A stretch of 7,441 bases of DNA from a virus (IMGVR_UViG_2531839579_000023); one strand, 5' to 3'. Counted from the stretch's first letter, positions 2,728 through 7,441 are shown. Translations and numbers: made by a program. Notes: a model not told the origin generated them from the letters alone.

Positions 2728-2753
2728 TCATAACACTGTGTTACCTGGCTAAT

Positions 2754-3343
2754 CAGAATTTATAACCGACACCCACGATGAAACCGTCAGTGCGCCAGTC
2801 ACCACTGCCGGAGCCTTCATAAGCAATATCAATGGCCACGGATTCGGTCGGGTTAAACTGCACGCCAGCCCCCCACGCCAGAGACGTGTTGCTGTGGCGA
2901 CCGTCATCACTTCCGGTCAGCACATCGTGCTTTTCCCCTTGTTGTCAGTTACGCGAGATAATCCCCGGAGAAAGTCGACACACGGCTGTAAGCCACACCC
3001 GCCATCGCATACGCGCTGAACCATTCATTCACGCGCACAGACGGCCCGCCATCACGCTGAACCAGCGGTTACGCACGGAATCTCATGCCAGCGGGTATCG
3101 CTGTATGCGTTTTTTGCTCATCTCAGCTTGGCATAACTGAAGACGTAATCAGCCCCAGCGGTCCGTAAACTCATAACGGTATTTCACGTTAATCCCGTTC
3201 AGATTATCGCTGCCGGGAGCGTTCGTACGGGCATGAAGATACCCTGCGCTCAGTGTGGCCTGCTGCTCAGACGCCCATGCAGGCGCACCGGATACGGCCA
3301 GACAGATGGCTGCGGACAAAATGGCTGCACAAACTTTACGCAT
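2754..3343 (-). pseudogene. lom: Lom outer-membrane protein (Ail/Lom family), frame-disrupted as given
   Basis: Start ORF 3149-3343 reads MRKVCAAILSAAICLAVSGAPAWASEQQATLSAGYLHARTNAPGSDNLNGINVKYRYEFTD, near-identical to recalled lambda Lom with a cleavable signal peptide. Manual translation of the 3' end gives ...HDVLTGSDDGRHSNTSLAWGAGVQFNPTESVAIDIAYEGSGSGDWRTDGFIVGVGYKF, stop at 2754-2756. Between about 2935 and 3170 the Lom text continues only by switching frame several times. SD gagagg lies 6 nt upstream of the ATG. Confidence 0.85.
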
Positions 3344-3367
3344 AATTACCTCTCGCTTTTCTGCAAT

Positions 3368-3391
3368 AAAAAAGGCGCCATTTCTGGCGCC
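3368..3391 (-). terminator. Hairpin plus T-run between J and lom (terminator-like)
   Basis: On the minus strand: ggcgcc agaaat ggcgcc followed by tttttt (plus 3386-3391 and 3374-3379 stems, A run 3368-3373). It lies 20 nt after the J stop and 24 nt before the lom ATG. Confidence 0.55.
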
Positions 3392-3410
3392 CGTATATGG
3401 GTTATAAAAT

Positions 3411-4850
3411 TCAGCTGATACTGATGCCTGCGGTGGCTTTCTTCATCACCACAACCAGCAAATCGCTGATACTTGCTGTGGGATACCAGTCATTTACCAG
3501 CCATGATGACACCGAAAACTCCAGCGTCATGTGGCCGCGACCAGCTGGCATATCAATAACACCACTGTAAATCAGCGTATTATCCAGCGCGGTACGGTTA
3601 TAAATTTCAGCACCGTTTTTCCGTACTATCAGGCGGCATGACGAATAAATATCGTTATTCTCCCTCTCATGTTTAGCGCCGCTGAATGCCACCGCCGGAA
3701 TAACAATCTGCCGGTCAAACGGCTGATCGTCATAAACCCTGACGGTGATGGTCCCTGATGGCCACCGTTCCGGTGCACGGGAGTCCCGGGGGAAAGCTTT
3801 GCCCACTGTTTTAACGAGATCGCCTTCAATCTGGTTGGCGGACAGTTTTCCCAGAACCCGACAGTTCTCGTTAATCGTGACGTTGTTGAGCGTCCCGGAG
3901 TTCGCATTCACGTTACCGCTGATATCGGCATTTTTCGCCGTCAGCCGCCCGTCCGGTGTCAGGGAAAATGCCGGAGGATTACCGCCGCTGGTAATGGTCG
4001 GAGCCGTCAGGCGTTTCAGGAACACGTCGTTCATGAATATCTGATCGCCCTGACCAACAAACATTGGTCTTGTGTTGCCATTAGACGGATCAATAAACGC
4101 GATACGGTTAGCGGCAACCAGGAACTGGCTCAGCTTGCCTTCTTCCGTGTCCTCCATGCTGAGGCCAATACCCGCGACATAATGTTTGCCGTCTTTGGTC
4201 TGCTCAATTTTGACAGCCCACATGGCATTCCACTTATCGTTGGCGTCCTTCCACTCTTTCGAAAACTCCTCCAGTCTGCTGGCGTTATCCTCCGTCAGCT
4301 CGACTTTTTCCAGCAGCTCCTTGCCGAGATGGGATTCGGTTATCTTGCCTTTGAAAAAATCCAGGTAACCTTCCGCATCATCGCTCGCCCGACCGACGGC
4401 CTCCACGAATGCCGATTTGCCAACGGTGTTCACACTGCGGATATAAAAGTAATAATCATGGCCCGGTTTGATATTGATACTGGCAGCTATCCAGTACAGC
4501 GCCGAGCCAAGATAGCGGGCTGCGGTTTCAACCTGCCTGATATCCGCAATCCGCTTTTCCGAGAACCAGAACTCAAACTGTACCGTCGGATCATAAACCG
4601 CAAGATGCGGCGTGGCGGTTATCTGAAAATACCCCGGTGTCAGCTCAATCTGCGACGGCGCTGCCGGTGCGGCAATCCGGAACGATACCGATGCCGGATC
4701 GCCCTGCTGCCCCCACGCATTTACTGCCCGGACTGTCAGCCTGTAGTTCCCCAGCGCCAGTTGTGTGAAGCGGTATGTGGTTTCCGCCGTCCGGGCTGTG
4801 CTGACCAGCCGCTCACTGCCGTCATCCGCTGCCACGGTCAGGCGAAGCAT
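3411..4850 (-). CDS. J: Tail-tip host-specificity protein J, C-terminal 479 codons (uninterrupted portion)
   Basis: ORF reads ...[61 protein letters not shown]...[33 protein letters not shown]..., near-identical to recalled lambda J over roughly 330 aa, then a diverged last ~150 aa. The listed Met is internal; this is the 3' part of a longer gene whose upstream part is frame-broken. Confidence 0.9.
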
Positions 4851-6727
4851 GAACTCACGCCCTTCACCACCTTCGGCGTTCCCAGCGGCCAGACCTGATA
4901 CTCCCCGCTGTCTGCGGTGACTTCGCGGTCAGTGCTGCACGCTGGCGGCGTGACACCATTACCGTGCCGCTCTGGTCGCCGTCAAAGTGCGCCCCGTTAT
5001 CCACGATGGCTCTTTTTCCGGTACATGCTGCACGGCGGTGATGGCATACGTGCCGTCTCGTTCTCACGGATACTCACGCAGCGGAACAGGCGCTGGCGCA
5101 CGTCGGCAGCTTCAGCCCCCAACGCTGTATCGCAACGCCGTCAGGAACACGGCTCACTTTACCTTCACGCCGTCGGTGACGGACTGACCTCCACGCTGAC
5201 CGGATCCCTCCGTCAACCAGGCTTATCAGCGTGGTCCGGAGATGGCAGCGTGATTTCACGGTCGAGCGTCAGCGTCCGGGTCTGGCTGTTACCGCCAGCA
5301 CGCGCCCCGGTGCGATACCGCATAGTCATCATCGCAGATTTCAATGACATCCCCGGTACATGGCGAAGCCCTTCGCACCCACGCTGAAGTCCACGGTCTG
5401 CGTTTCCAGCAGTTCGTTTTAATCAGCCACAGCCCGGCGCGGTGGCCTGCCCCCGGCTGGTACAGCCAAAGCATCCATCTTCGTGACGTTACGACCGTAA
5501 CGGGCAATGGCCTGCGTTCTCACAAGCTCTGTCGCCGTCTCCCAGCCGTTATCGGGTCAATCCAGTTCACCTCAACGGCATTATGGCGGTCTTCAGGGCG
5601 CTGAACTGTAGCGGAACGGCGCCCATCATCCGGCATCACCACATTACTGCGGTTATAGGCCACACCTTATCGAGGTCGGTCCTGCACGAACGTCAGCTCT
5701 GCCCGTTCCATACCGGCATACAGCGCATCGCGAGCAGAAATCACTGAGCACATCCCACGCTTCGCTGGTGGTCAGAGCATTACAGGTGATGCGCGGCTCC
5801 GTGCCGCCAAACCGTCCGGCACGACTGGTCGCAGTACTGGCCGATAATACAGCGCCCATTTTCCACATCGCCGCACCAAGACGTTTCCCCATGCCGTAGC
5901 GGGATGGGTCAGCATATCCCACAGACACCAGGCCATGTTTTGCTGTATGCTGGCTTAAACGTTCCGTCCCAGATACCGCTGTATTGCCGGTCTGCGGGTT
6001 ATAGTTCGACGGCACCTGCAGAATACGCCCGCGCAGATGATAATTACGGCTCACCTGCTGGCTGCCGAACTGCTCCGATCCACCTGACGCCGACCAGTGC
6101 CGTGTTCGGGTAGCACTGTTTCACATCGATATTTCGGTGTATGACGACCAGAGCGTTTTGTTCTGCAGCTGGTCTGTGGTGCTGTCCGGCGTCATCTGCG
6201 CATCCGGATATTAAACGGGCGCGGCGGCAGGTTATCCACCACCACCGAGGCCAGATACTGGAGTGGTTTTGCCCTTAATGGTGATGTCTTTTTCCGTCAC
6301 CCAGCCACCTTACGTGTATCTGAACCAGCAGGCGACTTCCGACGGATTCCGTCCCCCTTTGAGGTGGTTTCCACCAGTGCCTGCACACCGAAGGTAAAGC
6401 GCAGACGGTCGATGTTTGCCGACGTGATGGTCCGGGTATCGGCGTGTCTATTTCACTTCCGTACCCAGACCGTCTCGGACCGAGATTCAAATCCCTCCGG
6501 CGGTGTCTGTCCTGCTCACCTGCCCGGAACACCACCGTGACACCGAGATGTTGTATTCCCCTCACTGTCCAGCACCGGGTACTGTTCAGCAGCACGCTTT
6601 TTAATCCATCCACCGGACCTTCAACCGGCCCTTCGCTGATGGCATCGATCACACTCAGCAACTGCGTGGACTTCAGGTTGTCCTTCGCTTCGCGCGGGGT
6701 ATGCCCCTTACTGCTGCCTTTACCCAT
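4851..6727 (-). pseudogene. J: Tail-tip host-specificity protein J, N-terminal ~two-thirds, multiply frame-disrupted as given
   Basis: ATG at 6725-6727 with SD ggag 8 nt upstream; first 50 aa MGKGSSKGHTPREAKDNLKSTQLLSVIDAISEGPVEGPVDGLKSVLLNST match lambda J. Lambda-J-like text then continues in pieces on different frames (6275-6727, 5653-6054 QVSRNYHLRGRILQVPSNYNPQT..., 5289-5507 ...HRAGLWLIKT...GDVIEICDDDYA, 5074-5259 ...TALISLVDG...KVSRVPDGVA, 4864-5067 ...AIVDNGAHFDGDQSGTV), with stops between them. Confidence 0.8.
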
Positions 6728-6749
6728 TCGTCATGCTCCATAAACGACA

Positions 6750-6769
6750 AAACCGCCCGGAGGCGGTTT
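6750..6769 (-). other. Perfect 8-bp stem / 4-nt loop hairpin in the I-J intergenic spacer
   Basis: Plus strand aaaccgcc cgga ggcggttt (6750-6757, loop 6758-6761, 6762-6769). On the minus strand it is followed by tgtcgtttatggagc and the J ATG. The structure is seen directly; its function is unknown. Confidence 0.5.
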
Positions 6770-6787
6770 CACATAAAACATTTTGCA

Positions 6788-7441
6788 TCAGCGACCAATC
6801 ACCACAACCTGACCACCATCCCCTTCGTCTGCCGTGCTGATCTCCTGAGAAACCACACGTGACCCCACGCGCATTTCACCGTACAGAACAGGCAGAACAT
6901 TGCCCTGGGCAACCATGTTATCCAGTGAGGAGAAATAGGTGTTCTGTTTGCCGTTATCCGTTGTCTGTGTACGGGGAGTTCTGGCTTTCGGTGCCAGCAT
7001 CTGCGCCACACCACCGAGCACCATACTGGCACCGAGAGAAAACAGGATGCCGGTCATACCACCGGCCCCAATGGCTGCCCCCCATGCTGCAAGGGTGGCT
7101 CCGGCGGTAAAGAATGATCCGGCAATGGCGGCAGCCCCCAGGACAATCTGGAATACGCCACCTGACTTGGCCCCGGCGACTCTGGGAACAATATGAATCA
7201 CAGCGCCATCAGGCAGAGTCTCATGTAACTGCGCCGTTAACCCGGACGTGCTGACGTCCCGCCCGGCAATCCGTACCTGATACCAGCCGTCGCTCAGTTT
7301 CTGACGAAACACCGGGAGCTGTGTGGCCAGTGCGCGGATGGCTTCAGCCCCCGTTTTCACACGAAGGTCGATGCGGCGGCCAAATCGTTGCAAATCCCCG
7401 TAAAGGCAGATGCGCGCCATGCCCGGTGACGCCAGAGGGAG
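6788..7441 (-). CDS. I: Tail assembly protein I (gpI), 5' end beyond window
   Basis: ORF reads MARICLYGDLQRFGRRIDLRVKTGAEAIRALATQLP...GEMRVGSRVVSQEISTADEGDGGQVVVIGR, near-identical to recalled lambda gpI (223 aa). Lambda gpI has about 13 more N-terminal residues, so the true start is probably just past position 7441. Stop at 6788-6790. Confidence 0.9.
   Translation of the reverse strand, partial: LPLASPGMARICLYGDLQRFGRRIDLRVKTGAEAIRALATQLPVFRQKLSDGWYQVRIAGRDVSTSGLTAQLHETLPDGAVIHIVPRVAGAKSGGVFQIVLGAAAIAGSFFTAGATLAAWGAAIGAGGMTGILFSLGASMVLGGVAQMLAPKARTPRTQTTDNGKQNTYFSSLDNMVAQGNVLPVLYGEMRVGSRVVSQEISTADEGDGGQVVVIGR

Follow-up and report, generated by a model that had tools for sequence, protein, structure and literature searches.

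The tail tip of phage lambda binds LamB, and modular exchange of the C-terminus of the tip protein J is textbook biology of lambdoid phages. In the lambda structure, J (gpJ) terminates in the end of a beta-prism and an Ig-like receptor-binding domain (RBD), of which four distal loops reach into the LamB trimer and set off the opening of the tail (PMC11101478). Point mutations allow lambda gpJ to gain the use of OmpF, the J protein of phage 434 uses OmpC, and the exchange of J between lambda and 434 provides a precedent for this kind of replacement (PMC11101478). The J protein of Salmonella Gifsy-1, which uses OmpC, is a further precedent for a replaced specificity domain; its C-terminal region is reportedly only 18% identical to that of lambda (PMC12312913). 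Grafted at lambda residue 964, natural gpJ C-termini also redirect lambda particles, which then use OmpC (Brodel et al. 2024, PMC11338833). Two such C-termini, A8 and 1A2, make the particles use OmpC in place of LamB and show preferences among alleles (PMC11338833).

The window analyzed here is a stretch of 7,441 nucleotides from a viral record (IMGVR_UViG_2531839579_000023), in which the gene order I, J, lom, stf is the same as in lambda and in annotated Escherichia coli relatives. Gene I (7420→6788, minus strand) matches PF06805 and lies upstream of J. Downstream of J are found lom, a broken stf (~2694→793, minus strand) and, in the tfa position, a DUF4376 gene (786→220, minus strand), which together form the tail-gene neighbourhood of a lambda-type J. 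The DUF4376 gene (220-786) sits downstream of stf where a tail-fibre assembly gene is expected and stands in for the canonical tfa, and stf is annotated as incomplete even in clean relatives of this prophage. A DinI-like gene fragment is present at ~60-149. The closest overall relatives are prophages located beside ydfJ in human ETEC strains, with 96.6% identity, the shortfall being almost wholly due to bases absent from the window. Because the closest relative (L002:1717-3786) has the end of a truncated ydfJ just before window position 1, the window starts at the prophage/chromosome junction beside this gene. At the other end, positions 7001-7441 (the 5' part of gene I and upstream sequence) are nearly lambda, with 1-4 mismatches per bin, while the otherwise best-matching ETEC prophages have 62-73 mismatches and 24-30 indel positions there. 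Judged from these alignments, this region appears to be another mosaic joint.

The J gene runs on the minus strand from 6727 to 3411, with an ATG start at 6727 (MGKGSSKGHTPREAK...) and a stop codon at 3411-3413. According to the ORF list, its sole unbroken part in the window is a segment of 479 codons plus stop (3411..4850, minus strand). This ORF covers the FNIII/Ig domains, the helical shaft, the beta-prism and the RBD, and its Pfam domains follow the canonical order PF24421, PF24489, PF09327 and PF12421 (hmmscan). Its C-terminal sequence is exactly the one quoted in the initial annotation. The N-terminal two-thirds of J (4851..6727, minus strand) are 92-99% identical to lambda in aligned bases, but their reading frame is broken, so that one intact frame of ~1130 codons is absent from the window.

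Aligned to lambda gpJ (NC_001416, L001:1506-4901; UniProt P03749) with BLASTP, the 479-aa ORF spans lambda residues 653-1131. A maximum likelihood analysis placed a change point after ORF residue 326, which corresponds to lambda residue 978 and window nucleotide 3873, immediately before the sequence NENCRVLGK... Amino acid identity is 309/326 (94.8%) before this point and 68/153 (44.4%) after it (Fisher p=1.2e-34); the split proposed in the initial annotation (3414-3870) gives p=1.3e-33. At the DNA level, identity to lambda J is 92-100% over codons 1-900, 85% over codons 901-950 and ~60% over the remainder, starting at codon 951. In blastn, the lambda HSP breaks off at window position 3861, and sliding identity on a MAFFT alignment falls from 80% to 53% between adjacent 60-nt bins. 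The break is therefore real, correctly placed and far beyond chance, and the earlier view that the last ~150 residues of J are sharply diverged behind a lambda-like upstream part, with a C-terminus far less conserved than the rest, agrees with these alignments. The lambda C-terminus on which that view relied (ENCTINGTLRAEKIVGDIVKAASAAFPRQRESSVDWPSGT...MVIKKQALGISVV) is correct, because the BLASTP alignment with lambda gpJ reproduces it. The accompanying statement that the rest of J is near-identical to lambda stands for base identity and fails for the reading frame, in which 68 single bases are absent between 4853 and 6578. With 44% amino acid and ~55-60% DNA identity, and no megablast-level similarity, the window RBD lies outside the LamB-specific class of lambda.

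The diverged C-terminus (3414..3872, minus strand) comprises 153 codons, encoding the last rungs of the beta-prism and the Ig-like RBD, and is 44% identical in amino acids to lambda gpJ 979-1132. ORF residues 349-479 (3414..3806, minus strand) match PF12421 (Ig_GpJ_C; tip attachment protein J, C-terminal receptor-binding domain) over profile positions 1-135/135, with E=3.5e-39 and 134.4 bits against a cutoff of 26.2 (hmmscan). Sequence matches of the ORF in the PDB were lambda gpJ (8iyk, 8xcj/8xck) and "A8 gpJ 713" (9wca/9wcb). An AlphaFold2 model of the last 169 residues, built as a monomer from a shallow alignment of 18 sequences, had a mean pLDDT of 78.8, with 80-97 in the core beta-sandwich and low confidence in the N-terminal 35 residues and the last 6. 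Five frameshifted entries were dropped before modelling, and the protein-database matches were mostly short, fragmentary or frameshifted pieces of gpJ. Foldseek returned four solved gpJ tips, all with E~1e-18, while the next matches had E>5e-5. These were the closed state of A8 gpJ 713 (9wca; 64% identity, query-normalised TM 0.74), its open state with OmpC G17 from E. coli EDL933 (9wcb; 64%, TM 0.73), the lambda central tail fibre in its closed state (8xck; 48%, TM 0.77) and the lambda gpJ713-LamB complex in its open state (8xcj; 48%, TM 0.75). From the ADISG motif to the end, the window sequence shares 68% of its residues with A8 and 49% with lambda, and A8 is 51% identical to lambda. By profile, architecture, context and fold, the diverged stretch belongs to the gpJ C-terminal RBD family. 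This is the region that had been proposed to contact the receptor, and both the Pfam match and the agreement of the predicted structure with solved gpJ tips (TM 0.73-0.77) bear the proposal out.

Within the RBD, nearly all the variation and the indels are concentrated in four hypervariable patches, at residues ~46-53, 82-93, 107-118 and 138-150 of the 169-aa query. A framework consisting of a 22-residue stretch and an 18-residue strand is kept across RBD classes, and the framework motifs FPR, WPSGT, DDxPFDRQ and DMPAGRG are common to the lambda and window RBDs. The differences between the window class and A8 fall exactly in the four patches. This patchy variability does not track the DSSP loop/strand split of the monomer model: across RBD classes, mean entropy was 1.08 in loops and 1.02 in strands, a difference that was not significant (Mann-Whitney p=0.64). 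In the literature, we found no residue ranges for the lambda RBD loops L1-L4 and no paper for PDB entries 9wca/9wcb. Two gpJ tips from the database (P0026 and P0030) are of the window type up to about "AFSGAKH" and then continue with another C-terminal half (…VIYD…TTDVTAIYTGIMDMPAG…), a switch that suggests recombination inside the RBD itself.

A block of non-lambda DNA (2833..3872, minus strand; 39-74% identity in 60-nt bins of a MAFFT alignment) extends beyond the stop codon of J and covers the intergenic region and the greater part of lom. Its flanks have 80-92% lambda identity in three 60-nt bins upstream and 93% downstream, the latter value being reached again at window position 2832, in the last ~80 nt of lom. 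The lom gene (Ail/Lom outer-membrane beta-barrel protein; 2753..3343, minus strand) is frameshifted in the window by ~9 one-base deletions. In an intact relative, Lom is 43% identical to lambda Lom, except for its last 27 residues, which are near-identical (BLASTP). Since the non-lambda block continues through most of lom, the exchanged unit would be an RBD and lom cassette of ~1.04 kb. At the upstream edge of this block, a junction of 19 residues (3873..3929, minus strand) is common to the lambda, A8 and window classes. It overlaps the site, at lambda residue 964, where Brodel et al. (PMC11338833) joined their chimeras, and is likely the recombination point, acting as a putative 5' homology arm. 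Between the J stop and the lom start, a strong terminator-like hairpin is found (3373..3392, minus strand; GGGCGCC-AGAA-ATGGCGCCT followed by TTTTT), with an 8-bp stem including 6 GC pairs and a T-run; the scan gave 1 site versus 0.1 expected.

The same RBD is carried by different scaffolds. Window positions 3180-3930 are 100% identical to the second prophage of ETEC strains 120899 and 602354 (L003/L005). At 4001-4500, these prophages have 50 mismatches in 224 nt relative to the window, which is itself lambda-like there (1-27 mismatches per 250 nt). Because L003/L005 carry an identical RBD and differ in the beta-prism/PF09327 region, at a second mosaic boundary inside J, the two prism types assort independently of the RBD. 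A window-type RBD at 99% identity is also found behind a different prism type in the database protein P0001. The abrupt drop in identity from 80% to 53%, the presence of the same RBD on a different scaffold and the continuation of the block into lom all argue for replacement rather than drift. The initial annotation had left the choice between a swapped and a diverged domain on a conserved scaffold; the RBD was replaced and moves independently of the scaffold.

To assess the distribution of this RBD, 152 residues were compared with 50,697 phage records (tblastn). A class with 95-99% identity comprises 52 phage records, including PPompW prophages, VT1-Sakai, Stx2a phages, 2G7b and P-EibA. Another 82 records have 60-80% identity (A8-like types), and 104 have less than 60%, among which lambda stands at 44.7%. 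Among 5,426 complete E. coli genomes, the window RBD class was detected in 3,350 (62%; at least 90% DNA identity and at least 80% coverage), with up to 10 copies per genome, and an A8-like representative in ~1,086 (at least 90% DNA identity). Lambda's own RBD (L001:4452-4904) was found in 98 of these genomes, always at 99% identity or more; the five matches listed were laboratory K-12, B or DE3 strains. The copies found in complete genomes number ~7,600. As megablast is blind to relatives below ~85% identity, these genome counts describe close classes only. Among GTDB species representatives, the window class is present in E. coli, E. albertii, E. ruysiae and Shigella flexneri, and the one match beyond Escherichia/Shigella (86% identical) was in a MAG labelled "Proteobacteria bacterium". 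Viable phages carrying this class include 2G7b, PhiR47_1 and VT1-Sakai, and PhiR47_1 and PhiR55_1, which also carry it, have been used as plaque-forming temperate phages. With 3,350 genomes against 98, it is lambda that is the outlier, and the window tip the standard. On this evidence, the window tip is of the commonest RBD type in Escherichia/Shigella prophages and not a member of the LamB-specific lambda class. The textbook LamB-binding tip is then a rarity among natural E. coli prophages, and the finding is of value mainly as calibration. An RBD that assorts on different scaffolds and belongs to an already common class fits the ordinary lambdoid mosaicism that had been supposed at the outset.

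The record itself is uneven in quality. Compared with lambda and three independent E. coli prophages, the window has ~135 private deletions in J, lom and stf, nearly all of 1 nt, which are grouped in blocks at 1251-1500, 2001-2500, 2751-3250 and 4751-6750. The 68 one-base deletions of the J frame, between 4853 and 6578, are the same against four references. No insertions were detected relative to the closest relatives, substitutions to the best reference number 0-5 per 250 bp, and the stretches between the deletion blocks, including all of 3251-4750, are without indels. The best genome match of the mid-J block is 95.3% identical, with 1749 window bases aligned to 1827, and E. coli genomes carry this block in multiple copies (median 3 places, up to 14). 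J, lom and stf are untranslatable as written because one-base deletions break their frames. The deletion-only, non-homopolymer pattern with few substitutions, located at least partly in multi-copy sequence, resembles an unpolished long-read consensus, and an assembly artefact is thus more fitting than decay. The deletions are most likely sequencing or assembly errors, and the broken J frame probably bears on the record and not on the family assignment. "Pseudogene" calls in this window should not be trusted without the reads.

The best overall explanation for the observed identity break, domain family, fold, independent assortment and prevalence is a lambdoid J whose distal module has been exchanged and which carries the RBD of the commonest class, a reading to which we give a probability of roughly 0.85. 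In the proposed mechanism, homologous recombination would have exchanged the distal module of J on a lambda-like scaffold. The module would consist of the end of the beta-prism, the Ig-like RBD and the contiguous greater part of lom. The upstream exchange point would lie in the conserved stretch just downstream of lambda residue 964 and the downstream one in the conserved 3' end of lom, and these two conserved stretches, which bound the cassette, could act as homology arms. The scaffold (hub domains, FNIII/Ig domains, helical shaft and most of the prism) would stay lambda-like and assemble into the tail tip normally.

Other origins of the diverged sequence were weighed against this module exchange. 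The C-terminus could have diverged in place from a lambda-type ancestor, without recombination, under strong diversifying selection by receptor variation. Concentration of the RBD variation in four indel patches on a conserved framework is the pattern expected of selection on contact loops. However, the boundary is abrupt at the scale of adjacent 60-nt bins (80% vs 53%), and a DNA identity of ~55-60% indicates an old divergence, yet it adjoins a scaffold that is 92-100% identical. The identical RBD DNA on a different scaffold in L003/L005 and the extension of the block into lom, 43% identical to lambda Lom at the protein level, also oppose in-place divergence, which is largely refuted and very improbable. 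The ~135 private one-base deletions in J, lom and stf raised the question of whether poor sequence quality in the record could itself have produced the divergence. Region 3251-4750 contains zero indels, positions 3180-3930 are 100% identical to independent complete genomes, and the ORF is intact and matches its Pfam and PDB relatives end to end. The exact matches in other assemblies refute this explanation, whose probability is next to nil. The same deletions could instead mean that J is a decayed pseudogene of a defective prophage and the RBD a functionless relic: none of the three frames (upstream J, lom and stf) is intact, stf is annotated as incomplete in close relatives, and the end of the prophage has a DinI-like fragment. 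If the deletions were real, the RBD module would be non-functional in the source prophage. Neutral decay is nevertheless unlikely, as the changes are all deletions of nearly always 1 nt, without insertions and with hardly any substitutions relative to the best reference (0-5 per 250 bp). These deletions lie in discrete blocks, of which only the mid-J block was tested and found to be multi-copy (median 3 places per genome). Such a signature is that of an unpolished long-read consensus in repeats.

A further alternative concerns specificity: the exchanged module could be a LamB-binding tip of a different allele, so that the receptor is unchanged and only its fine specificity altered. The fold, which is the same as that of the lambda RBD (TM 0.75-0.77), and the framework motifs FPR, WPSGT, DDxPFDRQ and DMPAGRG that it has in common with lambda are compatible with this idea. 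Against it, identity to the lambda RBD is only 44-49%, and A8, which is equally distant from lambda (51%) and nearer to the window RBD, binds OmpC and not LamB; we consider a mere change of LamB allele quite unlikely. If the exchanged RBD acts as in the lambda-LamB and A8-OmpC complexes, the distal loops of the trimeric domain would enter a porin trimer in the outer membrane, and the domain would then pass the opening signal up the fibre. OmpC, or a subset of OmpC alleles, is the most likely receptor because A8 is the nearest characterised relative and because the distribution of the class is restricted to Escherichia/Shigella; by analogy, we give it about an even chance, in agreement with the different receptor or receptor allele suggested in the initial annotation. 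Specificity is, however, not settled by an identity of 64-68% to A8. A tentative candidate is another porin or outer-membrane protein, and LamB is an improbable one. A more speculative and rather doubtful variant is that the commonest tip class binds neither OmpC nor LamB, but another porin or outer-membrane protein, and that the linkage of the RBD to lom is also functional, instead of being incidental to the position of the homology arms; RBD and Lom could, for example, be transferred as a pair that influences adsorption or superinfection. In the literature, no receptor was found for the window RBD class, including the J proteins of VT1-Sakai, PPompW, Stx2a, 2G7b, PhiR47_1 and P-EibA. For the J of long-tailed Stx or O157 prophages, the literature gave only BamA, for short-tailed phages, and unconfirmed reports of FadL/LamB, and a large receptor-screen preprint, which covers virulent phages and unrelated GpJ tips, held nothing on the gpJ family studied here. 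Knowledge of the receptor of this prevalent class would help to predict prophage host range, and also to choose tips for engineered lambda-derived delivery particles.

Among characterised systems, lambda gpJ (P03749; 8iyk, 8xck, 8xcj) binds LamB and has the same gene order (I-J-lom-stf-tfa) and the same domain order as the window. Its scaffold is 95% identical in amino acids over residues 653-978 and its RBD has the same Ig-like fold (TM 0.75-0.77), whereas its last ~153 J residues are only 44% identical and the adjacent lom 43%. The same principle, a conserved N-terminus with a replaced C-terminal specificity domain, has been described for phage 434 J and for Salmonella Gifsy-1 J (PMC11101478, PMC12312913); Gifsy-1 J was not recovered among the relatives of the window RBD. 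The nearest characterised RBD is that of A8, a natural E. coli prophage C-terminus placed on lambda gpJ at 964 (9wca, and 9wcb with EDL933 OmpC), at 64-68% identity. A 16-residue junction and a 19-residue C-terminal strand are identical in A8 and the window, and the fold is the same. The two differ in the four patches, where one indel of 4 residues follows FPR and another of 5 residues lies close to KHE. OmpC binding is known for A8, which forms a separate abundance class (~1086 vs 3350 genomes); at 64-68% identity, the window RBD falls outside the A8 cluster, defined at ~90% or more, and the two emerged as separate classes in both the phage and the genome searches.

Another natural prophage gpJ C-terminus, 1A2 (Eligo), retargets lambda to OmpC with a preference for the O157 / EDL933-type allele. 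The window class is found in O157 prophages and, among the matches listed, occupies up to 7-8 places in O157:H7 or O157-like genomes. Because 1A2 prefers the O157 OmpC allele and the window class is abundant in O157 genomes, it is possible that the window class is 1A2. The J proteins of VT1-Sakai, PPompW prophages, Stx2a phages, 2G7b, PhiR47_1 and P-EibA belong to the same RBD class as the window, with 95-99% amino acid identity over 152 residues, while their scaffolds and flanking genes vary from phage to phage, as in ordinary mosaicism. Engineering already makes use of exchanged J C-termini, and the class is already annotated as "phage attachment tail tip protein J", so that this locus presents nothing new in kind: it is a known type of lambdoid tip on a lambda-like scaffold.
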